Assembly (NCBI GenBank): GCA_038320345.1
Contig: JBBQED010000001.1
Span: forward strand, 194,357 to 258,356
Reading direction: 5' to 3'
Source: Bacteroidia bacterium
GTDB lineage: Bacteria; Bacteroidota; Bacteroidia; AKYH767-A; OLB10
DNA length: 64,000 nt
The notes below the pieces were generated by a model, which worked only from the letters and a program-made list of their open reading frames with translations, did not search any database and was not told the origin of the DNA. Below, in pieces: positions 26,501 to 45,658 of the stretch. The first letter of the stretch is position 1. Each line of letters begins with the position of its first letter. Position numbers and translations under genes: made by a program.

Positions 26501-29500
26501 CAAACCTTCTATAACCTTGTTGTGGCAAAAACATCCGGACAATTACTTACTCCGAATGGATCTACGACTACTTTAACCACTCAAGATTTCACAGCAACTT
26601 CGGGGAATTTTACTGCTCCAGCTACAATGAATATCAATGGTAACTATACGTTAATGGATGGAACATATACTGCCGGAAGCAATACCAATGTAAAAGGAGA
26701 CTGGTCGCATTCTTCTTCAGGAACAGCCCTTTTTATTCCGGGGATCAACTCCGTTACTTTTAATGGAACAGGCGCTCAAAGTATTAAAGGAACTGCCACG
26801 TCAGAAACATTTTACAATGTAATAGTAAATAAAACAGCCGGTACATTACTAAATACTAGCGGAAATATTACTTCAATTACAACCAATAATTTCACCAATA
26901 CCCTAGGTAATTTTACAGCTCCAGCAACGTTGAATATCACTTCCACATCAACCTCCGCTTTAACAATGACCACTGGCACATTTACGGCAGGGGCAACCAT
27001 TAATATCAATGGAAATTGGACCAACAATGGAGGAACATTTACCCCGAGTACCAATACTGTTAATTTTACTGGAACAGCTGCACAGAGTATAAACGGGACT
27101 ACGGCGGCTCAAAATTTCTATAATGTGGTCGTTCTTAAAACAGCTGGTCAATTATTAAATACAGGCGGTAGTGTAACTTCTATAACTACCAATAACCTTA
27201 CTGTGACATCTGGTAACTTTACTGCTCCTGCCACTTTAAATATCAATTCTACAACAGCGTCCAATCTAACCTTAACTGCAGGAACGTTTACTGCCGGTAC
27301 GACGGTTAATATTACGGGTGATTGGATTAACAATGGGGGAACATTTACTCCTGGTACCAATACTATTAATTTTGTAGGAACAGGATCACAAAGTATTAGA
27401 GGTACTGCTGCTTCCCAAACTTTTTATCATGTAGTCGTCAATAAAACAGCTGGTCAGTTGTTAAATACTGCCGGATCGACAACTACGCTGACAACACAAA
27501 ATCTTACGAATACTCAAGGAAATTTTACGGCACCAGCTACACTAAATATTAATGGAAATTACACACTAACGGATGGTACATTTACTGCTGGTACCACAAT
27601 TAATTCCAAAGGAAATTGGACTCATGCCTCCATTGGCTCCGCTGTTTTTTCTCCAGGAACAAATACCGTAAATTTCAGTGGAACTGGAGCTCAGACTATA
27701 AATGGCACAGCAACATCAGAAACCTTTTATAATGTTATAATTGCTAAAACAGCCGGGCAATTACTAAACACCGGTGGAAGCATAATTACTATCACAACAA
27801 ATAACCTGACTGAGACAACTGGAAATTTTACGGCACCTACTACACTCAATATTAATGCAACATCAACAGCTTCGCTTCTGTTAACTGCAGGAACTTTTAC
27901 TGCTGGTACAACAGTTAATATTAACGGCGACTGGACAAACAACGGTGGAACTTTTACACCTTCAACCAGCACGGTCAACTTTACAGGTACAGGTGCGCAA
28001 AGTATAAAAGGAACTGCAGTTGCTCAAACTTTCTATCATGTAAATGTCGCTAAAACAGCGGGTCAGTTATTAAACACTTCAGGATCTACAGTAACGTTAA
28101 CAACGCAAAATCTTAGTCAGACAACAGGGAACTTCACTGCGCCATCGACTCTAAATATCAATGGAAATTTAACAATTGCAGATGGTACCTTCACAGCAGG
28201 TACAACCATAAATGCAAAAGGCGATTGGGTCCATAATTCTGGTGTCTCTGCACTGTTTACCCCTGGATTAAACACAGTGAATTTTACTGGTACGGGAACA
28301 CAGCAATTAAAAGGAACTGCAATATCAGAAACTTTTTATAATGTGGTGATCAATAAAACTGCAGCCAGTCTATTGAACTCCTCAGGAAGCATTGCCACTA
28401 TGACCGTAAATAATCTGACCAATACACAAGGTGATTTTACAGCTCCTGCTACATTGACTATCAATGGAAATTACATTTTAACAAATGGAACTTTTACTGC
28501 TGGGGCAAATATCAATATAAAAGGAAACTGGACACACGCAACATTAGCTTCAGCTATTTTTAGTTCTGGAACAGGAATAGTAAGTTTTATTGGAACAGGT
28601 GCACAAACAATAAACGGAACAAAAACTTCCGAAACGTTCTCTACGCTTGAAATCAATAAAACTATTGGTACCACACTCAATACTGGTGGAAGTGTAGTAA
28701 CCATAAACACCTTAAATTTGATTCAGACTCAAGGAAATTTCACGGCTCCTGCCACATTTACTGCAAATGGTGATTTAACTTTAACTACAGGAACTTTCAC
28801 TGCTGGGGCTACAATGAATATAAAAGGCAATTGGAATAACAATGGCGGCACTTTTACTCCCGGAACGAATACAGTAAATTTCAATGGATCAGCAAATGCA
28901 CAAACTATAGGTGGAAGCTCCGCTACTACTTTTTATAATATCAATACTAATAATACATACACTACATCTCCTCAATTTACTATCGGGATTAATACCACAA
29001 TAAGCAATCAATTTACAATGACTGCAGGTGAAATTAATCTCTCAACGAATACGCTAACATTAGGAACTTCCGCTGCAGCCCCTGGCTCGCTAGTATGCAC
29101 ACCTTCCTCTTCGAATTTTATGGGTGGAGGTAATTTTAAAAGATGGTTTAATACCACAACTATTGCTGCCGGAAACGTAAGAGGATTATTCCCAATGGGA
29201 ACAATAAGTGGAGATTATTATGCGCCCATGTATTTATCGACACCTGTAAGTGCTCCAACAACAGGGGGAACTATTACAGCTTCTTTCACGGATGCTTCTA
29301 CAAAAACAGATGTGAATATTACTGATGGTGCTTCCACCATTGAAAGAAGAAATGATGCCAATTGGACTATGGTTACTGCGAATGGACTTGCTGGTGGTAC
29401 CTACAATTTGGTTGCTGAAAGAACATTCTGCGCGATCTGTGTGGGAGATGTAAACGACCTTAGATTAATGCTTGCAAATAGCGTGGTGGGTACTGCAGGA

Positions 29501-30166
29501 ACCAATGGAGGAACTACTACTCAGCCGCAGGTATCCCGTACCGGACTAACACTTGCTCAAGTTGCCAATTCCTTTTTTATCGGCTCCGTTAGCTTTGTCA
29601 ATTCTCCATTGCCCATTGAATTAATCTCGTTTGATGCTCAGTTAAAGAATGACAAAGTTAAAATCAATTGGGTAACTGCCTCTGAAAGTAATAATGCATG
29701 GTTTGTGATTGAGAAATCAATTGATGGCCTAAATTATGAACTACTGGAAAAAATAAAAGGTGCAGGAAATAGCAGTTCTGTAAATTCTTATACAGCATCT
29801 GATGAAAATCCATCCATAGGGCGTTCAGCTTATCGTTTAAAACAAATTGATTTTGATGGTAAAATAAATTTGTTTGCCCCTGTGTGGATCTTTAATAATA
29901 GAATAAACACAAATCAAATTACATTATTTCCTAACCCCAACGATGGAACTGGAATTAATGTAACAATTTACTCTGATCGAATTCAAATGATGAACATTAC
30001 TATTTACGATGTGGTAGGTAAGTTAGTACTTAGTGAAAATGTGAAGTTGATCCCCGATCAAAATGTAATTACGGTTAATCCACCTGAAAAATTAAAACCC
30101 GGTATATACTTTCTAACTGCCGATCTTGACTCCAAACAATTTAATTCAAGATTGCTGATTAAATAA
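23552..30166 (+). CDS. giant Thr/Asn/Gly-rich repeat fibre/adhesin with T9SS type A C-terminal sorting domain
   Basis: The ORF is 2204 aa with a GTG start and a hydrophobic signal-like segment 'FFSIIVLVLLLTLPQLVLA'. The N-terminal motif is 'WETDVNWSLGHRPTNSEDAVIPA'. Ten tandem 101-aa units follow. The C-terminus is 'LFPNPNDGTGINVTIY...ITIYDVVGKLV...GIYFLTA'. Confidence 0.85.
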   Translation: MKQVKTKIKLLSPVLQKTEILKYKFFSIIVLVLLLTLPQLVLATTVNTLNSSGAWETDVNWSLGHRPTNSEDAVIPANISVNINSAAICASLTIGDGNFSSAVTINGSNSLTTTLAGGGTGDLSFNTTNNSNSYSLSAGAGSIVIAGTVLSGGNNGGSITVSTGSISFINAAGMTWGTAINLTVSGAGSASFTGPLNLSTSSAGSTTFLLTSTGNFTFNGLVTQSDATYTLSNTTTAGTINFNGGYNFSAGAFTTLSGETINFAGNLTVTDTPINFASGSNTVFTGSATITPLATVAFGNFRINSGVTVTAAGDLSVIGNWTNNGGTFTPGINTVTFNGTAAQAINGTSPSQSFYNITLGLTAGQALSVSGSTTTLTTQNFTQTTGDFSAGTATSVNINGNLTIASGTYTPGTTTNITGDFSNAGTYTAAATKTIAFVGASNSTVTGLGTYTIFNFTLNKSSKTTIVDLQSANFITGINTGNVYNFTFTQGTLKYNNSATLTDCHNNGVTTALTIPFNVVIESNAGTMNLCKSGTMTGTASNVVLSGALYINGGSVLVLRSTTTVDFQYRVNGGTPQLYITSGNLSLGGGFNYNPTTAVDYIDFSMTGGTVNTGTTPTNLATFALGNYTGGKTNMTGGIIYLEDATTGNYPDIDLGGSNVSPYNVSGGTVQFGTAGTAGSTIFAFQAYSSTNYPHFLLASGIAKQVVVFNNSDYKVLSLTISSGMTFDNRDYLTSTDNHRMTIMSNNGSSSFSNSGTFTPRTGTIEFTGTANQIINGSNATLTLYNVIINNSGGAGTSIAGSITTFNTQNFTETAGNFNPGTAATMTITGNTTLTSGTFTAPTTLNVKGNWTNNGGTFSPGTNTVNFTGTATQSITGTSSSETFYNVVLAKTAGQVLNTAGSISSITTNNLTMTTGNFTAPATLNINATSNSLLTLTAGTFTAGTTININGNWTNNGGTFTPGTGTVNFTGTGTQNINGTATAQTFYNLVVAKTSGQLLTPNGSTTTLTTQDFTATSGNFTAPATMNINGNYTLMDGTYTAGSNTNVKGDWSHSSSGTALFIPGINSVTFNGTGAQSIKGTATSETFYNVIVNKTAGTLLNTSGNITSITTNNFTNTLGNFTAPATLNITSTSTSALTMTTGTFTAGATININGNWTNNGGTFTPSTNTVNFTGTAAQSINGTTAAQNFYNVVVLKTAGQLLNTGGSVTSITTNNLTVTSGNFTAPATLNINSTTASNLTLTAGTFTAGTTVNITGDWINNGGTFTPGTNTINFVGTGSQSIRGTAASQTFYHVVVNKTAGQLLNTAGSTTTLTTQNLTNTQGNFTAPATLNINGNYTLTDGTFTAGTTINSKGNWTHASIGSAVFSPGTNTVNFSGTGAQTINGTATSETFYNVIIAKTAGQLLNTGGSIITITTNNLTETTGNFTAPTTLNINATSTASLLLTAGTFTAGTTVNINGDWTNNGGTFTPSTSTVNFTGTGAQSIKGTAVAQTFYHVNVAKTAGQLLNTSGSTVTLTTQNLSQTTGNFTAPSTLNINGNLTIADGTFTAGTTINAKGDWVHNSGVSALFTPGLNTVNFTGTGTQQLKGTAISETFYNVVINKTAASLLNSSGSIATMTVNNLTNTQGDFTAPATLTINGNYILTNGTFTAGANINIKGNWTHATLASAIFSSGTGIVSFIGTGAQTINGTKTSETFSTLEINKTIGTTLNTGGSVVTINTLNLIQTQGNFTAPATFTANGDLTLTTGTFTAGATMNIKGNWNNNGGTFTPGTNTVNFNGSANAQTIGGSSATTFYNINTNNTYTTSPQFTIGINTTISNQFTMTAGEINLSTNTLTLGTSAAAPGSLVCTPSSSNFMGGGNFKRWFNTTTIAAGNVRGLFPMGTISGDYYAPMYLSTPVSAPTTGGTITASFTDASTKTDVNITDGASTIERRNDANWTMVTANGLAGGTYNLVAERTFCAICVGDVNDLRLMLANSVVGTAGTNGGTTTQPQVSRTGLTLAQVANSFFIGSVSFVNSPLPIELISFDAQLKNDKVKINWVTASESNNAWFVIEKSIDGLNYELLEKIKGAGNSSSVNSYTASDENPSIGRSAYRLKQIDFDGKINLFAPVWIFNNRINTNQITLFPNPNDGTGINVTIYSDRIQMMNITIYDVVGKLVLSENVKLIPDQNVITVNPPEKLKPGIYFLTADLDSKQFNSRLLIK
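25835..28864 (+). repeat. ten in-frame tandem repeats of 294-306 nt (98-102 aa)
   Basis: Unit starts were mapped by eye at 25835, 26135, 26441, 26744, 27050, 27356, 27659, 27965, 28268 and 28571. The consensus is 'TNTVNFTGTGAQSI.GTA...TFYNV...KTAGQLLNT.GS.T..TT.NLT.T.GNFTAP.TLNING...LT.GTFTAGTT.N..G.WT....G.F.PG'. More diverged copies lie at about 24394-24850. Confidence 0.9.
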
Positions 30167-33623: not shown

Positions 33624-35624
33624 CTAAATATTCTCCTTATCAACTTCTATAGATTCAGAACGTGTAGGAAATATAAATGAAAATGGCATGGCGCGGAAAT
33701 AGGCCCTTAGTGAAAATAATAGATTTTTCATCCTCTTCACATTTAAGCTCCGCGATCGTACTGCTATATAAATGGCCGATCCAAAACTAACAAAGAGGTT
33801 GATAAGCCCCATTAATATAAGTGAGAGACTTACTTCAATCAACAAATTGGAATCAATAGGAAAGTTACTTCCTTGTAAGGATAGTCCAAATACTCCAGTA
33901 GAGAGTGTTACGTGCCGTACATCAAAAGGAAGTCCGAGCAACTTCCCAAACATTCCAGCAAAACCAAGAAAAAATCCTAGATAAACGTTACCTAATATTA
34001 CTCCAAGATTGTTCTTTAGATAAGAGCCGATTTTATGTAGGCGGTTTTCACTAAATATTTTTATCAGGAAGGGATGCTGACGAATTCGTTCAGGAATTCG
34101 ATCATAAATCACTTTGTTATCATAATACCCGGCAATCAAACCACCCATCATCAAAAACACACCGGCAATTGCAGCATAAAAGAGGGAACCGGTTTCCCAA
34201 GGATGTAAACTCTGCATCATTTCATGTGATTCCTCTGGAGTAGTGAGATTAGATCCCATCACTGAAAAGTAAATCCAGCCCAATAAAAAAGTAAATGGTA
34301 AAACAACAATAATGTTTCCAATGAGTGATATAAACTGTGCTCTCGAAATTTCCGAAATTAATTTTACGGTTTTTAACATCGATTTATCTACCGTCACTTG
34401 ATCATCGATGGAAGCAGCAATAGTATTAGCCGTTAATGCTGGCTGTTTAGTAGCAAGTGTAAAATGAAGAAAATGAATCAGCACAAACCCTACAGCGTAA
34501 ATTAAACTATAAAGAAGTGCTTCCCAAAAAGCAGGAAACTCTGCATGATGTACAAACACTTTTAGGATTACTAAAAAACTTACGATAAATCCACCGCCCA
34601 ATGCGCCTCTGAACATTGCATTATACTCTTTCCAATTCGAAGCACTGTAATGCTCGCCTTTATGTGAAGTATGTTCTGTTATTTTATAAGCGATTAAACT
34701 GAGATTATCATTGATATGTTTGCGAATACTAAACCGCTTATTCTCTGCTTGAATGGATTCCTTTGTAAAAAGCAAAAGCTGCTCTGTAAAAAGATCCTTG
34801 TCCCGGAGTTCAATCAGATTTAAAATGACTGTAAGCCTTACAATGTGCTGCTCCAATCGCAACATTAAATAAGCTAGCTGAATACTGATGCCGTACTTGT
34901 CTTTATGTTTATGTAGCTCATTAATGCTTTCACGGCATTGAGAACACATTACTAAAATCTGTCGATAATCTTCATCGTTACGATTGATGTACGAAGGATC
35001 TTCTTTGAAATAATGTACATACTGCTGGACTTCTTTGTAAAGCCCAAAGAATGGAGATTGCAAGTCTTCTGTCTGAGGCAGTTTGTTCAATACTTCCGGT
35101 TCCAATCCGATAGCGGTAACACGCTGTGATAGTACCATCATCGCATTAAGCAAAAAATTCAAATTCTTTTGGTCCCAGAAAGAAGCATCTGCATTTATAC
35201 CGATCGCATTAATAAAATTAATCCATACAGTTTCATCGATGTTTTCAATATTACGAAAATCGCTTTTATTGTAAAATATTTTTCGAATGAGAAACTGTGT
35301 GTTCTCTGGTTCTTCCAGTGGTGGAAGAATTTTAAATTTTAAACGCTGAAAGATCTCTGTGAAAAAACCATGTCCTGTAAATATTCCGGTTTCCGTATAA
35401 AAAGTTAACGGATTATAAGAACTGTATAAATCAATAAGAAATCTACGTAAAGCTGTTGCAAGTTTTGGCTCTTGCAACAGTAATGTAGTTAACTCAATAA
35501 TTTTTTTAGTAGTAGAAGTTGAATTCCCCGAATGAATCCCCAACTCATTAATCAGATCTATCAGTATGGAGGGATCCGCATTCTCTTCAGACTGAATCTT
35601 CTCTAGCAATTCACGTATTCTCAT
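33624..35624 (-). CDS. 666-aa protein with a soluble N-terminal half and a polytopic C-terminal half; possibly the family annotated 'site-specific recombinase transmembrane protein' (Gcr-like), true function unknown
   Basis: The ORF is long and clean. About 330 helical soluble residues are followed by at least 6 hydrophobic helices (FIVSFLVILKVFV, LLYSLIYAVGFVLIHFLHF, LIGNIIVVLPFTFLLGWIYF, LFYAAIAGVFLMMGGLIAGY, VILGNVYLGFFLGFAGMFG, LSLILMGLINLFVSFGSAIYI). The family name is a recollection, not a match I could verify. Confidence 0.4.
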   Translation of the reverse strand: MRIRELLEKIQSEENADPSILIDLINELGIHSGNSTSTTKKIIELTTLLLQEPKLATALRRFLIDLYSSYNPLTFYTETGIFTGHGFFTEIFQRLKFKILPPLEEPENTQFLIRKIFYNKSDFRNIENIDETVWINFINAIGINADASFWDQKNLNFLLNAMMVLSQRVTAIGLEPEVLNKLPQTEDLQSPFFGLYKEVQQYVHYFKEDPSYINRNDEDYRQILVMCSQCRESINELHKHKDKYGISIQLAYLMLRLEQHIVRLTVILNLIELRDKDLFTEQLLLFTKESIQAENKRFSIRKHINDNLSLIAYKITEHTSHKGEHYSASNWKEYNAMFRGALGGGFIVSFLVILKVFVHHAEFPAFWEALLYSLIYAVGFVLIHFLHFTLATKQPALTANTIAASIDDQVTVDKSMLKTVKLISEISRAQFISLIGNIIVVLPFTFLLGWIYFSVMGSNLTTPEESHEMMQSLHPWETGSLFYAAIAGVFLMMGGLIAGYYDNKVIYDRIPERIRQHPFLIKIFSENRLHKIGSYLKNNLGVILGNVYLGFFLGFAGMFGKLLGLPFDVRHVTLSTGVFGLSLQGSNFPIDSNLLIEVSLSLILMGLINLFVSFGSAIYIAVRSRSLNVKRMKNLLFSLRAYFRAMPFSFIFPTRSESIEVDKENI

Positions 35625-35747: not shown

Positions 35748-38700
35748 TCATTTCCAATCCGGCCACCTTCCGGGCGTATATGGCGCGTTATTTATTTCTA
35801 ATTCTTTTTCAAGACTGATAATGGCGGCGTCTGTACTTTTCAATTCAGTTAATACTGAAGTAAATTGTTTCGCAGCTATATCATAACTATCGGTATAAAT
35901 TTTAGGAATAATAGAAGTGACATTCCAAACACTCCCCTGTATCCCATTAATGCGATCATTGATAGAAGTATTCGATTCGAATTCTCTCTTGCTTTTAGCA
36001 ACATCTCCAGTGAGCCGAATGTTTATGGAAAGTAATTGCTTTGAAATCGCTCTTGCTTTTTCCAACATAGCTTTGCCAGGTGCCTGCATATCCTGAATAG
36101 CCAAATTAATGTTCTTCAGTCGCTGATTCATCGTTGATGCTAAATCATTAGCCGCACTTACGGCTTTCAACAAATCAGATGCTTTTTGATAGAAGGCATC
36201 ATTGGAGGCAAGATTTGTGGGCAGAGTAGAGTTCTCCAACTGTTTACAAACAAAATTTACAGGACTTGTAAGTTCGGTGATGATACCATCATCGTACTTC
36301 GACAGCGTTACAGAATATGTTCCCGGTAAAACACGATATCCTAATTCTTCTTCAGAAAACAACTGATCTTCTTCGGGTACCGGACGATTATTTACCGGAG
36401 CTGGAGAGGGGTAACGGAAGTCCCATGTTATTCTCTGTAATCCTTTTTTTGCTGGTGCTTTAAGGTTACGTACCACATTTCCTGTTTGGTCTTTTATGGT
36501 AAATAAAAGATAGGGATCGGGCTGATTATCTTCTAGCCTTAGGCTGTCGATGGAAGGGTAATAAATGGTTACTTTTTTATCTACACCTGCCTTTTCATTC
36601 TCTTTACGTTTGTCTTTTATTTTTTTAACATCTTCTTTCAAAAAATAAGTGAACACAGCACCAGGAGCCGGATTTTTAGCAGCATAATAACTACTTCCCA
36701 TATGTCCAGTATTCCTTAACCCAAGTGGTGAACTCTGCACATATATCAAACTTTCCTTTATCGGAAATAATATGGCTTGCTTATCAAGATCTGCTTTTTT
36801 AAATGTTCTGAGCACCGAATAATCATCAAGCACATAAAATCCTCTTCCAAAAGTTGCGAGCACCAAATCATTTTCACGTCTTTGAATTTCAATATCCCGC
36901 ACTGCAACAGTGGGTAATCCGGATTTTAATTGAATCCATTTCTGACCTCCGTTATTGGAGAAGTACAAACCGAATTCGGTTCCTACAAATAATAATTGGG
37001 AGTCAACATGATCTTCTGCAATAGCATATACACTTCCTCTAACAGGTAAATTCGATTGAATAGCCGTCCATGTTTTACCTGCATCGGTGGTTTTTAAAAG
37101 ATAAGGTTTGAAATCTCCATATCGATGATGATTAAAACATACATAAGCAGTATTCTTATCATGTTGGGAAGAAATGATCTGATGTACATAACTCTGTGCT
37201 GGTACACCTGGCAGATTATCCATTTTCGTCCAACTCTTTCCGCCATCAGTAGTGAGCTGAATCAGTCCATCATCGGTCCCTACCCAAATCATATCTGGAT
37301 CAAATTTACTCTCTGCAATAGTGGTTAACTGTCCGTAGATATCGGTACTTCCATTTTTGGCAATAGCATCTACTGACCAAACTCTTCCCATGATCTCTAA
37401 TTTATTACGATCGATTTGTCGGGTGAGATCAGGACTGATTGCCGTCCATGAGTTACCTCTGTCATCGGTTTTAAATAATTTATTTGCTCCAAAATACAAA
37501 CGTGTATTGGAATGCTGACTAATCAACAAAGGTGCATCCCAGTTCCAACGCAGTGCTTCTTCTCCTTCACCTTCAATCGGCTTAATTGGCAAAAACTCTC
37601 CGCTCTTATGATCAAACCGGTTTAATCCTCCATACTGACTTTGAGCATAAATAAGATCTGGATTACTTTGGTCAACTTGTGTTTCAAATCCATCTCCTGT
37701 AGAAGTCACATACCAATCTGAATTCGCAATCCCATTCATCGAAACAGAACGTGAAGGTCCGCCTAAACTAAAATTATCTTGCGTACCTCCGTGAACGTTA
37801 TAGAACGGATAGGCATTATCGGTAGTCACTTTATAGAATTGAGTCACTGGCAAATTAGCTTTAAAGTCCCACGATTTTGCAAAGTCGTACGTTTCATAAA
37901 CACCTCCGTCACATCCTACCAATAAGTGATTTACATCTGAAGGGTCAATCCATATCGCATGATTATCCACATGCTTATTAATCTCTCCCAGATTGACAAC
38001 AGTCTTACCTCCATCGGTACTCAATTTAAAATAAGTGTCGGTAATAAAAATTTTATTTACGTCTTTGGGATCGCAAACAATTTCTTGATAGTAATTTCCA
38101 GCGGAAAAATAAGGTCCTCTTTTTTCCCAACTAGCTCCTTTATCATTTGAACGGTAAATTCCACCTTTATCATCTTTCGCTTCCACTACGGAATACAACA
38201 CATCAGGATTCACACTACTGATCGCTAAACCCATTCTTCCAATATCTCCTGAAGGTAATCCACCTTCAAGTTTTTTCCAGGTACTTCCACCATCTACTGA
38301 TTTATAAATTGCGGATTCTGGTCCTCCACCGATATATGTAAATACTTTGCGCATACGCTGATGAAAAGCGGCATATAAAATTTTGGGATTGCGAGGATCC
38401 ATCACCAAATCATTGCATCCGGTATACGCACTCACTGATTTTACGCAAGTCCAAGTAGACCCACCATCTGTTGTTTTGTATACTCCGCGCTCTCCACCTT
38501 CACTCCAAACGGGACCATACGCGGCAACATAAACAGTATTAGGATCACTCGGATCTACCAGCACTTTTGCAATGTGCTCTGATGATTTTAATCCCATATT
38601 TTTCCAGCTCTTTCCTCCATCTTCACTCTTGTAAACACCATCGCCATAAGAAACTGAACGTTGGTTATTATTTTCTCCAGAACCTACCCAAACAATATTT

Positions 38701-39020
38701 GAATTCGTTGGATCTAAGGAGATGCAACCAATAGAATAGGATCCTTGTCCGTCAAATACGGGGAGATAGGTTACTCCGCGATTGGTAGTTTTCCAAACAC
38801 CACCTGCAGCACTTGCTACATAGTATTCACTGCTATTCTGTGGATTCACAGCAAAATCAGAGATCCTACCGGAGGTCACTGCCGGACCAATGCTACGGAA
38901 TTTAAGGCTGTTAAACATGTCGGTATTGAACAAACTTGCACTGTCGGGATCTGTCTTTTTCTGACAGAATGCATGATATGCGCTCAATAATACCACAAGC
39001 ATTAGGATGCTTTTTTTCAT
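35748..39020 (-). CDS. VPS10/sortilin-type BNR (Asp-box) repeat beta-propeller protein, secreted
   Basis: A signal peptide is present. Nine Asp-box-like motifs occur (SEDGGKSW, TTDGGSTW, SVDGGSTW, SNDKGASW, STDGGKTV, TDDRGNSW, TTDGGKSW, TTDAGKTW, SNNGGQKW). The N-terminus is 'FRSIGPAVTSGRISDFAVNP'. Confidence 0.8.
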   Translation of the reverse strand: MKKSILMLVVLLSAYHAFCQKKTDPDSASLFNTDMFNSLKFRSIGPAVTSGRISDFAVNPQNSSEYYVASAAGGVWKTTNRGVTYLPVFDGQGSYSIGCISLDPTNSNIVWVGSGENNNQRSVSYGDGVYKSEDGGKSWKNMGLKSSEHIAKVLVDPSDPNTVYVAAYGPVWSEGGERGVYKTTDGGSTWTCVKSVSAYTGCNDLVMDPRNPKILYAAFHQRMRKVFTYIGGGPESAIYKSVDGGSTWKKLEGGLPSGDIGRMGLAISSVNPDVLYSVVEAKDDKGGIYRSNDKGASWEKRGPYFSAGNYYQEIVCDPKDVNKIFITDTYFKLSTDGGKTVVNLGEINKHVDNHAIWIDPSDVNHLLVGCDGGVYETYDFAKSWDFKANLPVTQFYKVTTDNAYPFYNVHGGTQDNFSLGGPSRSVSMNGIANSDWYVTSTGDGFETQVDQSNPDLIYAQSQYGGLNRFDHKSGEFLPIKPIEGEGEEALRWNWDAPLLISQHSNTRLYFGANKLFKTDDRGNSWTAISPDLTRQIDRNKLEIMGRVWSVDAIAKNGSTDIYGQLTTIAESKFDPDMIWVGTDDGLIQLTTDGGKSWTKMDNLPGVPAQSYVHQIISSQHDKNTAYVCFNHHRYGDFKPYLLKTTDAGKTWTAIQSNLPVRGSVYAIAEDHVDSQLLFVGTEFGLYFSNNGGQKWIQLKSGLPTVAVRDIEIQRRENDLVLATFGRGFYVLDDYSVLRTFKKADLDKQAILFPIKESLIYVQSSPLGLRNTGHMGSSYYAAKNPAPGAVFTYFLKEDVKKIKDKRKENEKAGVDKKVTIYYPSIDSLRLEDNQPDPYLLFTIKDQTGNVVRNLKAPAKKGLQRITWDFRYPSPAPVNNRPVPEEDQLFSEEELGYRVLPGTYSVTLSKYDDGIITELTSPVNFVCKQLENSTLPTNLASNDAFYQKASDLLKAVSAANDLASTMNQRLKNINLAIQDMQAPGKAMLEKARAISKQLLSINIRLTGDVAKSKREFESNTSINDRINGIQGSVWNVTSIIPKIYTDSYDIAAKQFTSVLTELKSTDAAIISLEKELEINNAPYTPGRWPDWK

Positions 39021-39311: not shown

Positions 39312-41849
39312 ATGAATTCTTTAAAAACTACTATATTCCTCTTCATTTTACTCTCGTTTTCCTCTACTCAGAAGCTGTATTCTCAAGTGGTAATCAACGA
39401 GTATTCCTGTAGTAACCTCACACAATTTGCCGACAATTACGGAGACTATGGTGACTGGTTTGAATTATACAATACTTCAGCTTCAAATATGAGCATTGGA
39501 GGATATTACCTCAGCGACGACTCTCTCAATAATCTCAAGTGGATGATTCCTCCTACGGTAAACATACCTGCAAACGGCTTCCTTCGCTTCTGGGCTTCAG
39601 GCAGAAATATCGCAGTGGGTACCTCTTATCATACCAATTTTAAACTAACGCAAACCAAAAATTCAGCAGAAGTGCTTGTGTTGACCGATCCAGGTGGAAC
39701 TATCGTGGATTATAAAAAAATCAACCATAAAACTCAACTGGGCCACTCCTACGGAAGAACGCTCAATGGAGCAGCTTTCTGGAGTTATTTTACAACGCCA
39801 ACACCCAATTCTAGCAATAACACCTCCAACCCTTATGATGATTATGCGGATCGCCCCGACTACAGTGCAGTAGCTGGATTTTATCCTGCCGCAACTACTG
39901 TAGCTATTACAACTACTGAACTAAATGCCGATATTCATTATACACTAGACGGAACTATACCGACCGTATCCTCTCCTATTTACACCACCCCACTTACGAT
40001 TTCTTCAACTAGTGTTTTGAAAGCCATCACCATGAGTGCTGACCCGTTAATTCTACCTAGCTTCATGGAATATGCAACGTTTTTCATCAATGTGTCTCAT
40101 ACTATGCCGGTTGTTTCCATTGCTGGAACTCAATTGAACACTCTTGCAAATGGATCTGGTTCTCTTGAACCAAAAGGCTCTTTCGAATTGTTTGATGTTA
40201 ATCAACAACGTGTAGCGCATACTTACGGTGAATTTAATCGTCACGGACAAGATTCTTGGGTAAATAGTCAGCGGAGTCTGGATTTTATTTCAAGAGATGA
40301 AATGGGATATAATCACAGTGTAGAAGATAAAATTTTTTCTTCCTCAACTCGTGAAAACTTCCAGCGACTCGTTTTAAGAGCTGCCGGTGATGATAATTAT
40401 CCTGCCGATCATCATTCAGCTAATGCCGGTAGTGCTCATATCCGTGATGCCTATGTGCATAATCTTGCCATCGAGGGCGGAATGGATCTGGATGTTAGAA
40501 GAGCAGAGAAATGTGTGGTATACCTCAATGGAAATTATTGGGGCGTTTATGATATCCGAGAAAATCCAGATGATCATGACTTCACTAATTATTATTATGG
40601 TCAGGACAAATTTAATATTCAATACATTGAAACATGGGGTAATACTTGGGCACAATATGGAGGACAGGCTTCCATCAACGACTGGAACACGCTGTATAAT
40701 TTCGCCATGAATAATAATTTAAACTTTCCGTCAAATTATCAGTATGTCACAGATCGCCTCGATGTAAATAGTCTAGCCGATTATGTTATTGCCAATGCAT
40801 TCTCTGTTTGCTCAGATTGGTTAAATTATAATACAGGATGGTGGAGAGGACTTGATAGTACCGGCACTCACTTAAAATGGGGGTATATCCTTTGGGATAA
40901 TGATGCAACTTTTGGACATTATATCAATTATACTGGGATTCCAGATACAACAGCAATGGCAGAGCCTTGCGATCCAGAAGGATTAACAGGTGGGTCCGAT
41001 CCAGAAGGACATATAGCCTTGCTGAATAAGCTGCGTACAAATCCTACGTTTAACCAATATTATATCGGACGACAAATTGATTTGTGGAATACAGTTTTTA
41101 GTTGTGATAATATGCTAACAAAGTTGGATAGTATAATCGCGGTTCTGGATCCGGAAATGACAATGCATGCTTTAAGATGGAATGGAACTTATTCAGAATG
41201 GTATGCAAATGCTCAGTACTTAAGAACATTTATTCAGACAAGATGTACAAATCTAAGCGGTGGTTTTATTAGTTGTTACAACCTTACAGGACCTTACCAA
41301 CTAACATTGAATACAGATCCTATAGGTGCAGGAACGGTTCAGTTAAATTCGTTAACACTTAATCAATTCCCCTGGACGGGAACTTATTTTGGTGGAATGA
41401 CTACTAAATTAAAAGTGAATCCAAATGCGAATTATTCGTTCACAAACTGGTCATCAACTTCACAGGTATTTACTCCTGGAAATACAGCGCTCAACGTTGA
41501 CTTTACACTCGGTGCAAATGATTCAATAATTGCTCATTTCCTCACTACTACTTCTGTTGTAGAAGTTGATGGGAAGACTCCTAACTTAAATGTTTACCCA
41601 ACGCTGTTCAGTGATGAAGCAACTATTGATTTTAACCTTCCGGAAGCTGCTACAGTATCCATCAATTTGTATTCGTTAACAGGCGCACAGGTAATACAAC
41701 TGCAAGCTCCTGAAACTAAGCTTCAAGCAGGTAAGTACGGAATGAAAATAAATTTAGCCGGTACTACTATTCCTGCAGGAATCTATCTACTGAACTTTAG
41801 GGCCGGTAGCTTTAGCAGAAGTATAAAGCTCATTTATACTGCTCAATAA
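39312..41849 (+). CDS. CotH-family kinase-like protein with lamin-tail (LTD) and chitobiase-like domains and a T9SS type A C-terminal sorting domain
   Basis: After the signal peptide, the LTD region is 'VVINEYSCSN...GDWFELYNTSASNMSIGGYYLSDD'. The chitobiase-like segment is 'IHYTLDGTIPTVSSPIYTTPL'. The CotH core is 'LVLRAAGDDN...IRDAYVHNLA...VVYLNGNYWGVYDIRENPD' with 'WDNDATFGH'. The C-terminus is 'VYPTLFSDEATIDF...INLYSLTGAQV...GIYLLNF'. Confidence 0.85.
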   Translation: MNSLKTTIFLFILLSFSSTQKLYSQVVINEYSCSNLTQFADNYGDYGDWFELYNTSASNMSIGGYYLSDDSLNNLKWMIPPTVNIPANGFLRFWASGRNIAVGTSYHTNFKLTQTKNSAEVLVLTDPGGTIVDYKKINHKTQLGHSYGRTLNGAAFWSYFTTPTPNSSNNTSNPYDDYADRPDYSAVAGFYPAATTVAITTTELNADIHYTLDGTIPTVSSPIYTTPLTISSTSVLKAITMSADPLILPSFMEYATFFINVSHTMPVVSIAGTQLNTLANGSGSLEPKGSFELFDVNQQRVAHTYGEFNRHGQDSWVNSQRSLDFISRDEMGYNHSVEDKIFSSSTRENFQRLVLRAAGDDNYPADHHSANAGSAHIRDAYVHNLAIEGGMDLDVRRAEKCVVYLNGNYWGVYDIRENPDDHDFTNYYYGQDKFNIQYIETWGNTWAQYGGQASINDWNTLYNFAMNNNLNFPSNYQYVTDRLDVNSLADYVIANAFSVCSDWLNYNTGWWRGLDSTGTHLKWGYILWDNDATFGHYINYTGIPDTTAMAEPCDPEGLTGGSDPEGHIALLNKLRTNPTFNQYYIGRQIDLWNTVFSCDNMLTKLDSIIAVLDPEMTMHALRWNGTYSEWYANAQYLRTFIQTRCTNLSGGFISCYNLTGPYQLTLNTDPIGAGTVQLNSLTLNQFPWTGTYFGGMTTKLKVNPNANYSFTNWSSTSQVFTPGNTALNVDFTLGANDSIIAHFLTTTSVVEVDGKTPNLNVYPTLFSDEATIDFNLPEAATVSINLYSLTGAQVIQLQAPETKLQAGKYGMKINLAGTTIPAGIYLLNFRAGSFSRSIKLIYTAQ

Positions 41850-41952
41850 ACATCTTATTTTTAGTAAACTATTCTGCCGTGGAAACGTATAAACTCGTTA
41901 ACGCAAGTACCGGCAGGGTTCAGTATGTAATTAACTTGTCGCTATCGTATCC

Positions 41953-42342
41953 ATGAATAAATTAACCATTATACTTCTTGCAGCAATCGTTGTGATGAGT
42001 TCTTGTAAAAAAGGGCCGGGTCAAGGAGGCACTGCCACTATTAAAGGGAATGTTCATACTACCGACTACAATTCCACCCTACTGATCATTCAAGGAGAAT
42101 ATCCCTCAGCCGATCAAGATGTGTATATCATTTATGGAAATGATATTACTTACGGAGATCGTGCTAAATCAGGACCGGACGGAAACTATGAATTTAAATA
42201 CTTAAGAGAGGGTGATTACAAGATCTATGTGTACTCCGATGATACTACATTGTCCGGTAAAATTGCAGTATATACCAATGTAGAAATCACGAAGAAAAAG
42301 CAAACTGTATTTGCAGATACTCTCCAAATTAAAAAGAATTAA
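41953..42342 (+). CDS. small lipoprotein with carboxypeptidase-regulatory-like beta-sandwich
   Basis: The lipobox-like signal is 'AAIVVMSSC'. 'GTATIKGNV...GPDGNYEFKYLREGDYKIYVYS' resembles the CarboxypepD_reg fold. Confidence 0.55.
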   Translation: MNKLTIILLAAIVVMSSCKKGPGQGGTATIKGNVHTTDYNSTLLIIQGEYPSADQDVYIIYGNDITYGDRAKSGPDGNYEFKYLREGDYKIYVYSDDTTLSGKIAVYTNVEITKKKQTVFADTLQIKKN

Positions 42343-42944
42343 TGACTTTCAAAATGCAACTCTGCTTAACAAAATGGAAGTGTTTCTTCCTTTTCCTTTT
42401 ACTCCTTAATTCAATTTCCAACGCACAGAGTAAAAAAGAAATTAAAAAGTATAAGATCTCCTCCACAACAGAAACCCTAACAGAATGGGTCGCAGGAAAA
42501 GAAGTTAGTAGGACAGAGCTCTCTGAAATTTACGATAATAATGGAAATGTAATTGAAAGTACAGAATATAATAAGGATGGCTCTTTTAAGAAAAAAGAAT
42601 CTAGAAAATACAATAAATCAGGTGAGATTACTGAAGAGGTTAAATATTCCGAACGCGGGACAATCATCAGCAAAACCATTTATTCCTATAACGCTAATAA
42701 TGATAAAGTAACCGAACAAACTTTCGATGTAAACGGTAAACTGGTAGAATGGATAAAATATGGCTATGATTCCTTGAATCAGAAAATTTTTGAATTACAG
42801 CTTGATGAACAAGGAAAAGTGCTTAAAAAGTCGATGTATACCTACACTAAAAATGGCTTGCGAAAAGAAAAGAAAACTTACAATGGCAAGGAGGAATTGA
42901 TTTCCGTAAAAAAATATATGTACAACTCTTCCTCTGAAGATTAA
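42342..42944 (+). CDS. secreted Lys/Glu-rich protein made of short YD/MORN-like repeats
   Basis: A signal peptide ends in 'SISNAQ'. A periodicity of about 22-25 aa appears in 'IYDNNGNVIESTEYNKDGS', 'YSYNANNDKVTEQTFDVNGKL', 'YGYDSLNQKIFELQLDEQGKV' and 'YTYTKNGLRKEKKTYNGKEEL'. Its ATG overlaps the upstream stop (TAATG). Confidence 0.45.
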   Translation: MTFKMQLCLTKWKCFFLFLLLLNSISNAQSKKEIKKYKISSTTETLTEWVAGKEVSRTELSEIYDNNGNVIESTEYNKDGSFKKKESRKYNKSGEITEEVKYSERGTIISKTIYSYNANNDKVTEQTFDVNGKLVEWIKYGYDSLNQKIFELQLDEQGKVLKKSMYTYTKNGLRKEKKTYNGKEELISVKKYMYNSSSED

Positions 42945-42965
42945 CCGGAATTTACCCGGATAACC

Positions 42966-43730
42966 ATGGAAAATATCGATCAACACTTACGTAATTTTAT
43001 TACAGTAAATCTTTTGGATCTCGAAAAGGCGGCTCTTCTCGATAGGATTGATACGAAGTATGTTTTCAATCATACCCAACTTCCAAGCTTTCTTGAGCAG
43101 CTCAAAGACCATTATTTTGTGCTTGAAATCGATGATAAAAGAATGTTTCATTATGAATCCCTTTACTTCGACACTGATGATCTAGCTCTTTATAATTTAC
43201 ATTACTGCGGACGTCTGAACAGATATAAGATTCGCTTTCGTAGATATGTAGAATCGAATCTGAGTTTTTTTGAAATTAAATTCAAAAACAATAAAGGGAG
43301 AACAATTAAAAGTAGAATTAGTCAGTCGCCCGATGATATCATTAAAGGAGATGCCTTAAGTTTGCTCTCCGAAAAAACTCCCTTTACTCAAAAACACCTG
43401 AAAGCAACTATCTGGGTGAATTATATCCGAATTACCTTGGTGAGTAAAGATTTCAGTGAACGATTGACGCTCGATCTCGACCTTACTTTTAAAAATAGCA
43501 GTAAGGAAAAACAGATAGAAAATTTGGTGATCGCTGAGTTAAAACAAGGGAAATTAGGGTATTCTTTTTTTGGAAATCTGATGAAAGTAAACCGTATCAA
43601 ACAAGGCTCATTGAGTAAATACTGTTACGGCATTACCAATCTTTACAAAGAAGTACGATCCAATAATTTCAAAGAACAAATTGCTCTCTTAAATAAAATC
43701 CTACATGCTCCTACTCCAGAGTCTAAATAG
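42966..43730 (+). CDS. VTC-domain protein (polyphosphate polymerase catalytic tunnel, triphosphate tunnel metalloenzyme fold)
   Basis: There is no signal peptide. The motifs 'RIDTKYVF', 'SLYFDTDDLALY', 'YKIRFRRY', 'FFEIKFKNNKG', 'VIAELKQ' and 'LSKYCYG' follow the pattern I associate with bacterial VTC-domain proteins and yeast Vtc4. Confidence 0.75.
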   Translation: MENIDQHLRNFITVNLLDLEKAALLDRIDTKYVFNHTQLPSFLEQLKDHYFVLEIDDKRMFHYESLYFDTDDLALYNLHYCGRLNRYKIRFRRYVESNLSFFEIKFKNNKGRTIKSRISQSPDDIIKGDALSLLSEKTPFTQKHLKATIWVNYIRITLVSKDFSERLTLDLDLTFKNSSKEKQIENLVIAELKQGKLGYSFFGNLMKVNRIKQGSLSKYCYGITNLYKEVRSNNFKEQIALLNKILHAPTPESK

Positions 43731-44325
43731 TGAATCAGCAGAAACAGCGCTCACGCTGTTCGATAAATTATCTCCTAAATTCTTTATCCGACTTACCGTT
43801 GATATGGTGGCGGTTTTTATACTTATTCGCTTTGTTTATTTCCCGATCTATAGAAGCCGTGAAAATATCTTTACCTTTTATATTTTTAACCTGATCATCT
43901 TCATGATTACTTTTCTGCTCAATAAAGTAGAAATGAGTATGGGGGCTGCCTTCGGTTTATTTGCCGTGTTCTCTATGCTGAGGTATCGGACAGAAGATAT
44001 TTCCATTAAAGACATGACCTATCTCTTCCTCGTTATAGCGATGGGACTTATCAATGCCGTTAGTAAAGGGAGTTGGGATGAGCTGACGCTTCTCTGTGGT
44101 ATTATTGTTCTCGTTACGTATTTACTGGAGAGTAAAGTGCTGATGAAAAAAGAAGTAGTGAAAATCGTTATGTATGAAAATATAGAATTCATAAAGCCAG
44201 AAAACAAAGCTTTACTCATCGCTGATCTGGAAAATAGAATGGGAGTAAAAATTAATCAAGTCACCATCGGAAAAGTAGATTTCCTCAGAGATGCCGCTCA
44301 GTTGCATGTCTTTTATTATGAATAA
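43705..44325 (+). CDS. DUF4956-like polytopic membrane protein
   Basis: It has 4-5 helices (VAVFILIRFVYFPIY, IFTFYIFNLIIFMITFLL, GAAFGLFAVFSMLRY, YLFLVIAMGLINAV, LTLLCGIIVLVTYLL), the motif 'MLRYRTEDIS', and a soluble tail of about 60 aa. It overlaps the VTC ORF by 26 nt; an alternative ATG is at 43804. Confidence 0.6.
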   Translation: MLLLQSLNSESAETALTLFDKLSPKFFIRLTVDMVAVFILIRFVYFPIYRSRENIFTFYIFNLIIFMITFLLNKVEMSMGAAFGLFAVFSMLRYRTEDISIKDMTYLFLVIAMGLINAVSKGSWDELTLLCGIIVLVTYLLESKVLMKKEVVKIVMYENIEFIKPENKALLIADLENRMGVKINQVTIGKVDFLRDAAQLHVFYYE

Positions 44326-44980
44326 AAAAGTTTTTCTCTTCCTGCTTGTTTTGCCTTCTTTTGCCAAGGCACAGGTAAATGATGCAGGATTGTGGACCAG
44401 CATTAATCTAGATAAAAAAATCAACAAACAATTTACCATTAACTTCACGGAAGAGCTCCGCTTTAACGAAAATATTTCTGAGCTTGGTAATTACTTTTCT
44501 GAATTTTCACTCGAATACAAATTTAATAAAATGATTTCCGCCTCTGTTGGCTACCGTTTTATTCAAAAAAGAAACTTGGATGGATACTATAGTAAACGAC
44601 ATCGTTTCATCTCTGAAATAGCTTTTAAAAAGAAGTTAAGAAACCTTGCCGTTAACTTAAAGCTGAAATATCAAAGCCAGTATAGTAACTATTATTCCAG
44701 TGAAACAGGCAAAATTCCCGACCAATATCTTCGTACAAAATTACAGCTGAAATACGACCTCAATAAACGCTATACTCCTTCTATTTCGGGAGAATCCTTT
44801 TATTTTTTAAATAGTAAAGAAGGTGTGCTTTTTAATAATTACCGCCTAACAATAGGATTCAATTACGAATTTTCTAAAAAATCATCGTTGGATCTAGCGT
44901 ATCTGATCAATAAAGAAATTCAAGTTAATGACCCATGGACTTCTTACATCACTTCGATTGGATGGAATTATAGTTTTTGA
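44318..44980 (+). CDS. DUF2490-like outer-membrane beta-barrel protein
   Basis: The signal peptide is 'MNKKVFLFLLVLPSFAKAQ'. Alternating amphipathic strands are visible and the C-terminus ends 'GWNYSF'. The ATG at 44318 overlaps the upstream stop by 8 nt; the track start is 44291. Confidence 0.55.
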   Translation: MNKKVFLFLLVLPSFAKAQVNDAGLWTSINLDKKINKQFTINFTEELRFNENISELGNYFSEFSLEYKFNKMISASVGYRFIQKRNLDGYYSKRHRFISEIAFKKKLRNLAVNLKLKYQSQYSNYYSSETGKIPDQYLRTKLQLKYDLNKRYTPSISGESFYFLNSKEGVLFNNYRLTIGFNYEFSKKSSLDLAYLINKEIQVNDPWTSYITSIGWNYSF

Positions 44981-44983
44981 TGT

Positions 44984-45658
44984 TCAGGATTTTATTAACC
45001 CCGCCTGCGTTCGGCTCATTTTTATACCTTTTATTCCAGGAATCAATCCCAATTGTAAAACATAGCTCCCAATAGGATTTCCTTTTTTCAAACAGGATAT
45101 TCTGGCTCTATACAAACCAGCCGGAAATGTTTTTCCAGAAATTCTTAATACAGGATTGGTAAATTTTCCTGTAGGCTGCGCAATCGTTTCATGGGAATCT
45201 TCGCTAAAGCCAAGTTTAATCCATCGTTCAACTTTAACTCCTGCATTGAAAGTGCCTTCCTCATAGGGAACATCTGCGCGATCAAGGCCAATCCAAGGAT
45301 CAAAAAAAGTATCTCTACGTGAAGTATTCTGTAGAAAGGCATCGGTCTCTACATCTCCTGCATCGGCAAAAACATAATTAGGCACCGGAGAAATCAACCT
45401 CATTCCAATCTCCTCCACATCAATGGGAACAATAAAATAAATAAAAAAATACTGATGACTATCAAATACTTCATCGGCCTTCTCAGTAGTACTGATATAA
45501 TCATAAAATCCTGTTGTTCGAGGATAAGGTATTCGCTGGACTTTACCTTCATTCACAATTTTTCCACTCTCGGAAGTAAAAAGCTCCAATCGTTGAGCCA
45601 TCCCCGAACTTGAAATTAATACTGCTAGTACCGGTAAAATAATTTGTCTGATGTTCAT
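44984..45658 (-). CDS. hypothetical secreted protein
   Basis: The signal peptide is 'MNIRQIILPVLAVLISSSGMAQ'. I recognised no domain. It is convergent with the cluster, with 3 nt between the stops. Confidence 0.5.
   Translation of the reverse strand: MNIRQIILPVLAVLISSSGMAQRLELFTSESGKIVNEGKVQRIPYPRTTGFYDYISTTEKADEVFDSHQYFFIYFIVPIDVEEIGMRLISPVPNYVFADAGDVETDAFLQNTSRRDTFFDPWIGLDRADVPYEEGTFNAGVKVERWIKLGFSEDSHETIAQPTGKFTNPVLRISGKTFPAGLYRARISCLKKGNPIGSYVLQLGLIPGIKGIKMSRTQAGLIKS

Follow-up and report, generated by a model that had tools for sequence, protein, structure and literature searches.

How might a bacterium deliver polyphosphate (polyP) to its periplasm, to its surface or to the medium, and what could serve as phosphoryl donor to an exported protein of the CotH kinase fold where ATP is scarce? 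Both questions are made testable by a six-gene cluster at positions 39312 to 44980 of a 64,000-nucleotide (nt) stretch of Bacteroidia DNA (NCBI GenBank assembly GCA_038320345.1, contig JBBQED010000001.1, positions 194,357 to 258,356), the whole of which is called the window here. The cluster encodes a CotH-family kinase-like protein, a small lipoprotein, a lysine-rich repeat protein, a VTC-domain protein, a DUF4956 membrane protein and a DUF2490 protein. The known bacterial enzymes of polyP synthesis, PPK1 and PPK2, are cytoplasmic, and our literature search found no described bacterial polyP exporter. The reading that we favor, to which we give a probability of roughly 45%, is that the cluster may form a module coupling polyP synthesis to export across the envelope and serving phospho-enzymes outside the cell, as its sequences, structural models and analogy to a eukaryotic system suggest.

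An earlier note on this DNA, made from its letters alone, had described six plus-strand open reading frames (ORFs), and all six were found as described. They are the CotH-family gene (39312..41849, +; 845 amino acids [aa], from the ORF list, Pfam and NCBIfam), the small lipoprotein gene (41953..42342, +; 129 aa, from the sequence and its lipobox), the repeat protein gene (42342..42944, +; 200 aa, from the sequence and an alignment) and, each assigned by Pfam, the genes for the VTC-domain protein (42966..43730, +; 254 aa), the DUF4956 protein (43705..44325, +; 206 aa) and the DUF2490 protein (44318..44980, +; 220 aa from its ATG). The longest version of the DUF2490 ORF starts at 44291, and it is the ATG at 44318 that opens a typical signal peptide and for which the overlap with the DUF4956 gene holds. 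The junctions of +103, −1, +21, −26 and −8 nt that the note had given agree with the sequence, the −1 junction being read directly as TAATG, and Pfam searches agreed with each of its family names (CotH, VTC, DUF4956 and DUF2490). Its proposal that the sorting signals map onto successive envelope layers is consistent with the signals that we read from the six proteins. The window encodes many proteins with a C-terminal tail for the type IX secretion system (T9SS), and its nearest relatives are Bacteroidia metagenome-assembled genomes (MAGs).

The enzyme at the center of the cluster matches Pfam VTC (PF09359) over profile positions 2 to 234 of 235 (E 1.3e-26; 94.1 bits against a cut-off of 23), and its sequence contains neither a signal peptide nor a hydrophobic segment. 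Single-sequence searches with VTC and CotH against PDB sequences returned nothing relevant, and profiles were needed. An AlphaFold2 model of VTC (predicted local distance difference test [pLDDT] 86.6, predicted template modeling score [pTM] 0.84) was compared with the PDB, and its 13 best matches were all tunnel domains of Vtc4, Vtc3 or Vtc2 (E down to 7e-12; template modeling [TM] scores 0.57 to 0.66), the best entries being 8i6v, 7ytj and 3g3q/r/t. E. coli YgiF and CYTH proteins ranked below the Vtc domains, with TM scores of at most 0.52. A cross-phylum VTC alignment likewise matched Vtc4 (3g3q, E 0.0012) and Vtc2 (E 0.0016). In the HMMER alignment to 3g3q, window residues K31, R90, R92, K105 and K115 align with Vtc4 K200, R264, R266, K281 and K294, and R155, R166, E191 and S217/K218 align with R361, R373, E426 and S457/K458; these Vtc4-equivalent residues are invariant or nearly so in VTC sequences of Bacteroidota, Proteobacteria, Deinococcota, Chloroflexota-type, Actinomycetota and Verrucomicrobiota origin. 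Vtc4 K200 is the catalytic lysine, replaced in the inactive Vtc2, and the other residues are basic and acidic ones that line the tunnel, roles reportedly established by Hothorn et al. 2009. Homologs of VTC have a median net charge of +14 and are basic in 98-99% of cases, against 43% of background ORFs. Judged by model and alignment, the window VTC is a cytoplasmic triphosphate-tunnel enzyme of the Vtc4 polyphosphate-polymerase type.

The VTC gene overlaps that of a small inner-membrane protein that matches DUF4956 (PF16316) over the entire profile (positions 1-169 of 169; E 9e-53; 178.9 bits). Its sequence indicates four to five membrane helices, and its model (pLDDT 80) has an N-terminal helix, five membrane helices and a C-terminal beta-alpha-beta-beta domain, for which weak ACT-domain matches were found in the PDB. 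With the model as query, a PDB library that included the VTC complexes 8i6v, 7ytj and 9umg returned nothing at E <= 1e-3. An RYRTE motif (aa 93-97) is almost invariant in DUF4956 across phyla and, by the positive-inside rule applied by eye, this motif and the C-terminal domain are probably cytoplasmic, on the same side of the membrane as VTC. A suspected MgtC domain was rejected, as neither MgtC nor any other Pfam domain was found in DUF4956 even at E <= 10. The family is large, with about 2,270 clusters at 50% identity. Identity to the respective nearest relatives is 73-85% for DUF4956 against 49-64% for VTC, an unusually strong constraint for a small membrane protein whose overlapping partner is far less conserved. 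Apparent fusions of DUF4956 to DUF2490 or to CotH (proteins P0384, P0446, P0454 and P0417) were considered as Rosetta-stone evidence and rejected, as internal signal peptides are retained in them; merged neighboring genes or read-through are the best explanation. One of them, P0384, has a K/E-rich linker of 90 residues without a stop codon and could be a genuine polyprotein.

The last gene encodes a DUF2490 protein (PF10677; E 4.4e-25; 88.9 bits against a cut-off of 29.8) with a signal peptide and the C terminus ...WNYSF; its homologs have a median net charge of +11, positive in 99% of them. DUF2490 is classified as a putative porin (TCDB 1.B.81), pore function having been established for no member of the family (PMC4827864), and adjacent DUF4956 and DUF2490 genes have been recorded in Bacteroides thetaiotaomicron (BT3498-99; PMC10434189). 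In Proteobacterial modules the position after DUF4956 that DUF2490 holds in Bacteroidota is taken by the gene of a phosphate-selective porin of the OprO/P family (Porin_O_P), with Pfam E values of 1e-43 to 1e-50 in Pseudoalteromonas, Shewanella and others, and the porin is linked to the module in two different gene orders. DUF2490 resembles OprP and OprO as a beta-barrel protein with a signal peptide and is itself strongly basic; its length is about 220 aa and that of the porins about 370 aa. Comparison of profiles gave no homology between them: the window DUF2490 has no Pfam match to Porin_O_P (PF07396), and the idea that it is a diverged Porin_O_P was rejected when hhalign against module-linked porins returned a probability of 2.8%. 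By these comparisons DUF2490 and Porin_O_P are analogous in position only, a non-orthologous replacement. The replacement is the strongest indication, drawn from gene order, that a phosphate-containing anion may cross the outer membrane in this module.

Two further products are predicted to lie between the membranes, and at standard cut-offs neither the 129-aa nor the 200-aa protein matched a family in the Pfam search. The 129-aa protein has the lipobox ...VMSSC and weak Pfam matches to fn3_3 and CarboxypepD_reg, and the profile of its family matches NOMO2 (9c7v, E 2.4e-4); by these matches it is a CarboxypepD_reg/NOMO-like beta-sandwich. It probably faces the periplasm, because no acidic surface-export motif follows its cysteine. 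The 200-aa protein has an N-terminal signal peptide followed by lysine-rich, RHS/YD-like hairpin repeats of about 22 residues, and the start of the mature protein, SKKxIKK, is nearly invariant in the family alignment. Its matches to RHS_repeat (E 0.018) and to the Rhs structure 7q97 (E 0.14) are weak, its homologs have a median net charge of +7 (positive in 98%), and it is probably periplasmic. The same protein (42342-42944) gave a weak PADLOC match to the candidate defense model PDC-M04B (E 9.7e-5), which probably reflects repeat composition; an anti-phage defense system was considered and rejected, there being no defense family match besides this one.

At the other end of the cluster, the 845-aa protein contains a CotH domain (PF08757; E 2.8e-28; 99.8 bits against a cut-off of 23.8) at aa 344-646 (nt 40341-41249, +). 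Pfam places an LTD domain at aa 23-133 and a CHB_HEX_C_1/Fn3_assoc domain at aa 188-243 ahead of it and an InlB-B-like repeat (Flg_new_2) at aa 689-744 behind it, and NCBIfam a T9SS type A C-terminal domain at aa 761-841 (nt 41592-41834, +). A profile of 12 divergent CotH domains matched the Bacillus cereus CotH structure 5JD9 at E 8e-27. D502, the catalytic residue, and D529, in a WD.D..FG motif, are invariant in these 12 domains, and N507 is nearly so (at least 90%). The two aligned aspartates are 23 residues apart in B. cereus CotH and 27 apart in the window protein. We take them to be B. subtilis D228 and D251, also 23 apart, the numbering reportedly being that of Nguyen et al. 2016. The window CotH thus shares with the Bacillus spore-coat kinase (5JD9/5JDA) its kinase-like fold family and the catalytic Asp, the Asn and the metal-binding Asp, and differs from it in carrying LTD and CHB_HEX_C domains, in belonging to a non-sporulating member of the Bacteroidota and in being exported; the spore protein acts in the mother-cell cytoplasm with ATP at hand.

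Export of the window CotH is indicated by a signal peptide, judged by eye, and by the T9SS tail. The tail is marginal in the window protein (24.0 bits against a cut-off of 23 for TIGR04183; 23.7 against 27 for Pfam Por_Secre_tail, PF18962) and scores clearly in orthologs, up to 54.5 bits (related locus L009). VTC-linked CotH proteins carry an export signal in all phyla checked: Sec plus the T9SS domain in the window, a lipoprotein signal in two Gammaproteobacteria, a twin-arginine (Tat) signal in loci L154 and L156 and a Sec signal in Deinococcus.

The neighborhood was examined in 80 species-level loci fetched around VTC relatives, annotated with hidden Markov models (HMMs) built iteratively from the window proteins, a set that was later extended; the HMM for CotH was built from three domain seeds and left out the LTD and T9SS domains. 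A second locus scan seeded with Verrucomicrobia VTC returned mostly Bacteroidota again, one seeded with Proteobacterial VTC proteins added 80 further loci, and other phyla were reached through a distant Deinococcus DUF4956 query together with Pfam-annotated contigs. That the neighborhood should be conserved beyond this genome, as the earlier note supposed, holds for several phyla and more than 150 species-level genomes. Across 208 unique related loci, the genes for VTC and DUF4956 nearly always adjoin each other and in most cases overlap; in one count of 129 unique loci, DUF4956 adjoins VTC in 125 of the 126 with flanking sequence, mostly with overlaps of 23, 26, 4 or 32 nt. In one relative, with 64% identity in VTC, all six genes recur in unchanged order amid unrelated flanks. 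The DUF2490 gene was found in 93 of 105 Bacteroidota-type loci, the gene for the repeat protein in 93 of 116 and the lipoprotein gene in 86 of 110. A CotH gene precedes the core in about 54% of Bacteroidota-type loci and is present in about 81% of porin-type loci, and its placement is one-sided: across 120 unique Bacteroidota-type loci, the upstream flank (627 kb) contains 71 CotH ORFs and the downstream flank (630 kb) contains 0.

When 156 unique loci with adequate flanks were sorted by content, the largest class (51/156) combined DUF2490, a same-strand CotH and a lipoprotein or repeat gene, followed by DUF2490 with a lipoprotein or repeat gene and no CotH (37/156) and by Porin_O_P with CotH and no lipoprotein or repeat gene (30/156). 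Ten of the 156 had no outer-membrane gene, no CotH and no lipoprotein or repeat gene. Both CotH and the lipoprotein/repeat genes were missing from eight loci with DUF2490 and from seven with Porin_O_P, another seven had CotH with no outer-membrane or lipoprotein/repeat gene, and minor classes made up six. Paludibacter is among the lineages reduced to VTC-DUF4956-DUF2490. The order CotH-VTC-DUF4956-Porin_O_P is standard in Haliea/Halioglobus, Shewanella, Colwellia, Pseudoalteromonas, Psychrosphaera, Paraglaciecola, Thalassotalea and others; it was found as well in Aliikangiella, besides Halioglobus, and on a contig with a DUF4956 similar to one labeled Desulfobacteraceae, and one further contig has VTC-DUF4956-Porin_O_P-CotH. 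Deinococcus taeanensis has CotH-VTC-DUF4956, a 4.95-Mb metagenome contig (L156) has VTC-DUF4956-CotH followed by a two-component system, and a Phototrophicaceae MAG (L154) has VTC-DUF4956-Cthe_2159 plus a CotH that was visible only to the HMM built here. Its distribution marks the cluster as a conserved module rather than a fortuitous neighborhood, and its obligatory core, as these gene orders indicate, is VTC plus DUF4956, with an outer-membrane channel added in diderms; CotH is frequent and not obligatory.

Bacteroidota loci without CotH usually have another T9SS-tail protein as the upstream gene. The replacements comprise an SBBP beta-propeller, a metallophosphoesterase with a T9SS tail (one Bacteroidota locus, L074:7865-8998) and a 555-aa protein of no Pfam family, the last found upstream of the core in L042:938-2605, L036:7311-8960, L054:7841-9505 and about 15 other loci. 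The possibility that the 555-aa T9SS protein is a cryptic CotH was rejected, the hhalign probability being 0.4%. In the Alphaproteobacteria Shinella and Aminobacter the order DUF4956-VTC is followed by a phytase-like esterase (L150:8818-9756 and L152:8789-9724), so exported phosphoesterases can, on gene order, take the place of CotH. In some relatives an SBBP-type protein immediately precedes the core or is inserted between it and CotH (L015:5898-8822; L159:3253-6174), and the window itself encodes an SBBP beta-propeller with a T9SS tail (18805-20511, +) 19 kb upstream of the cluster.

Transcription signals were sought in the window. A sigma-70 promoter scan performed at chance level, sigma-70 being uninformative for Bacteroidota, and no match to the Bacteroidota-type promoter pattern was found near the cluster. 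A terminator scan returned 10 sites, against 3.6 in shuffles, none of them at a gene junction within the cluster. The 103-nt gap between the CotH and lipoprotein genes (41850-41952) folds no better than shuffled sequence (z −0.2), the hairpin of the window itself being weak, and its sequence is not conserved among relatives. When the gap was compared with those of L002:8883-8980, L004:8896-9000, L014:6036-6132 and L022:5488-5665 and the alignment read by eye, hairpins of 10-15 bp that differ in sequence were seen in several relatives. Such a hairpin after CotH is possibly a partial terminator. CotH may be partly uncoupled from the five-gene core, because several relatives carry a strong hairpin in this gap, and such uncoupling fits its facultative presence.

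The earlier note held that no function had been described for this assembly, and we found none in the literature; the association itself had already been published. A contiguous accessory set of cotH, polyP-polymerase, DUF4956 and DUF4832 genes occurs in Gram-positive pelDEADAFG loci (Whitfield et al. 2020, PMC7112168), a homologous set, SIR_1594-1591, lies at the Pel locus of Streptococcus intermedius (PMC12345266), and NELoc-2 of Clostridium perfringens has a related run of VTC, a 'tubulin/FtsZ-like' membrane protein and CotH (PMC2879425). In sputum medium, S. intermedius deleted for the CotH or the DUF4956 homolog showed a loss of more than 50% of its Pel-dependent aggregation, and its Pel levels changed (PMC12345266). 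The Gram-positive set shares with the window a secreted CotH, a cytoplasmic VTC-like protein and a DUF4956 with four to five transmembrane segments and an ACT-like tail, its trio of genes being contiguous and co-oriented as in the window. It differs in that Gram-negative forms add DUF2490 or a phosphate porin and that Bacteroidota forms further add the lipoprotein, the repeat protein and a T9SS signal on CotH. The authors of the mBio 2025 study stated that they had been unable to find the trio outside Pel loci (PMC12345266). A Pfam scan of the neighbors found no pel, DUF4832 or ppk gene within about 15 kb on either side of the cluster, and the trio occurs without Pel genes in the window and likewise in Proteobacteria and Deinococcota, as judged by the genes listed around it. 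No paper was found that gives a function, Gram-negative forms or a link to a phosphate porin, and those Gram-negative forms that include an outer-membrane channel are new.

What might such a module do? The yeast VTC complex (Vtc4 with Vtc3 or Vtc2 and with Vtc1), in which Vtc4 feeds a membrane channel, couples polyP synthesis to translocation toward the positive side of its membrane, which is equivalent to the extracytoplasmic side. The catalytic modules of the yeast complex and of the window share a Pfam family, the tunnel fold and the Vtc4 residues. Both systems pair a cytoplasmic enzyme genetically with a membrane protein, and the target compartment would be topologically equivalent (extracytoplasmic); they agree in topology and in the sign of the membrane potential. 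In bacteria the membrane partner is a separate polypeptide, DUF4956, whereas yeast Vtc4 contains both SPX and a membrane segment; diderm bacterial modules add an outer-membrane channel and periplasmic proteins, and often an exported kinase-fold enzyme, that the yeast complex lacks. The best-supported reading by analogy is that VTC and DUF4956 form a two-polypeptide counterpart of the yeast polymerase/translocase.

In the scheme that we infer, which takes in polyP synthesis, contact between VTC and DUF4956, the direction of transport, what the two periplasmic proteins do and which phosphoryl donor CotH uses, VTC would dock on the cytoplasmic face of a DUF4956 oligomer through the ACT-like domain and a ring of RYRTE motifs. 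It would polymerize the gamma-phosphates of ATP into polyP, and the growing chain would be threaded outward through DUF4956, the inside-negative membrane potential favoring export of the polyanion. Once in the periplasm, the polymer may be guided or handled by the basic repeat protein and the lipoprotein, and it would leave through the basic DUF2490 barrel or, in Proteobacteria, through the OprO/P-type porin. Outside the cell, the T9SS-exported CotH would act with or on polyP, which would most plausibly serve it as phosphoryl donor in surroundings that lack ATP, and an exported phosphoesterase would stand in its place in other lineages. Passage of polyP through the envelope is strengthened as an idea because an OprO/P porin can substitute for DUF2490, VTC, the repeat protein and DUF2490 are consistently basic, VTC-linked CotH carries export signals and the Vtc4 residues are kept. 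The fully specified version, by which a VTC-type machine unrelated to PPK1 and PPK2 extrudes polyP through DUF4956 and DUF2490 or the porin and the exported polyP is the donor of secreted CotH, seems to us doubtful as a whole. The trans-envelope polyP module that the earlier note had proposed survives in part: family assignments, neighborhood, sorting signals and the phosphate porin of Proteobacteria speak for it, and CotH is a frequent rather than an obligatory member of it.

Several observations count against coupled synthesis and export. The window VTC has neither an SPX domain nor the membrane segment of Vtc4, and DUF4956 is, as far as its model can be compared, unrelated to the yeast VTC membrane domain and without a solved relative; it was modeled as a monomer, which cannot reveal a pore. 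We know of no biochemical activity for any bacterial VTC-domain protein, DUF4956 or DUF2490. CotH is missing from almost half of the Bacteroidota loci, its homologs are strongly acidic (median net charge −23), and the gap hairpins in several relatives put its co-transcription with the core in doubt. A porin is passive and therefore mute on the direction of transport, and the phosphoesterases that replace CotH fit phosphate scavenging equally well. This last point leads to an alternative that we hold to be unlikely, namely that the module imports a phosphate polymer, which would pass from the outer-membrane anion channel by way of the repeat protein and DUF4956 to consumption by the tunnel enzyme (hydrolysis or transfer to ADP), exported CotH or phosphoesterases processing phospho-compounds outside the cell. 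OprP and OprO are classically known as uptake channels for phosphate and pyrophosphate and are tightly linked to DUF4956 here, phytase-like esterase, metallophosphoesterase, HAD or histidine-phosphatase genes neighbor some loci, two-component systems adjoin the pair in two, and many carriers are aquatic Gammaproteobacteria and Bacteroidota. The tunnel enzyme is nevertheless closest to Vtc4-type polymerases rather than to hydrolases of the triphosphate tunnel metalloenzyme (TTM) type and keeps the polymerase lysine; the sole characterized VTC enzyme carries polyP away from the cytoplasm, an inside-negative potential opposes entry of a polyanion, and a kinase-fold partner and the link to Pel export in Gram-positives fit uptake poorly.

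The two-component systems beside some loci are also compatible with a sensing or regulatory device, a reading that we consider quite unlikely. Here the tunnel would bind or hydrolyze a triphosphate (ATP, tripolyphosphate [PPPi] or short polyP), DUF4956 would relay phosphate or energy status to the envelope through its ACT-like domain, as has been proposed for MgtC-like proteins, and CotH would phosphorylate surface or matrix targets independently, with ATP from another source. Many TTM proteins are hydrolases, as is generally known and as is seen among the lower-ranked structure matches, and the C-terminal domain of DUF4956 is weakly ACT-like. The S. intermedius homolog of DUF4956 was described by its authors as MgtC-like plus ACT, and its deletion alters the amount of Pel; no aggregation defect was reported on deletion of the VTC homolog (PMC12345266), a result that also tells against the export that we favor. 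Pfam, by contrast, finds no MgtC domain in DUF4956 even at the permissive threshold given above, and a sensor leaves unexplained both the consistently basic periplasmic and outer-membrane components and an anion channel in the outer membrane that is translationally coupled to DUF4956 in two phyla by means of unrelated barrels. Finally, the genes could be neighbors without shared function, their sorting-signal pattern a coincidence among common Bacteroidota envelope proteins. In the window the cluster is flanked by unrelated genes for housekeeping or secreted proteins, many related loci lack CotH, and neither a promoter nor a terminator could be assigned. Against such a coincidence stand order and adjacency kept in more than 150 species-level genomes of several phyla, conserved start/stop overlaps, the one-sided placement of CotH and the same partners in Proteobacteria and Deinococcota, with Gram-positives reported to carry them too; chance adjacency of the five-gene core is, on this comparative evidence, effectively refuted, and unrelated function for the cluster is hardly credible.

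Should the fully specified version hold, with exported polyP as the donor of secreted CotH, the module would be the first dedicated polyP exporter in bacteria and the first case of extracellular phosphorylation that is independent of ATP. It would also provide a bacterial relative of the eukaryotic VTC polymerase and first functional contexts for the DUF4956, DUF2490 and repeat-protein families, and it bears, through the Pel loci of streptococci, on the biology of the biofilm matrix. Experiments are feasible because the module occurs in cultured, tractable organisms, among them Pseudoalteromonas atlantica, Shewanella holmiensis, Colwellia maritima, Emticicia aquatica and Deinococcus taeanensis.

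The surroundings of the cluster in the window hold features of their own. A gene for a LipL32-like surface lipoprotein (44984-45658, −; Pfam Lipl32, E 1.6e-31) is convergent with the DUF2490 gene, just 3 nt separating the two stops, and it is, by comparison of loci, outside the module because it is absent from related loci. Just upstream lie a 1090-aa Sortilin/BNR-repeat protein (35748-39020, −) and a site-specific recombinase (33624-35624, −; PF10136, E 2e-190), neither of which is conserved beside the module, and farther upstream an ORF for a giant secreted protein of 2204 aa (23552-30166, +) in which Pfam recognizes a T9SS C-terminal sorting domain and nothing else. The window yielded no tRNA genes, and its sole Rfam match is a Flavo-1 RNA (RF01705; 57439-57524, −), which scores 54.6 bits against a gathering threshold of 42.

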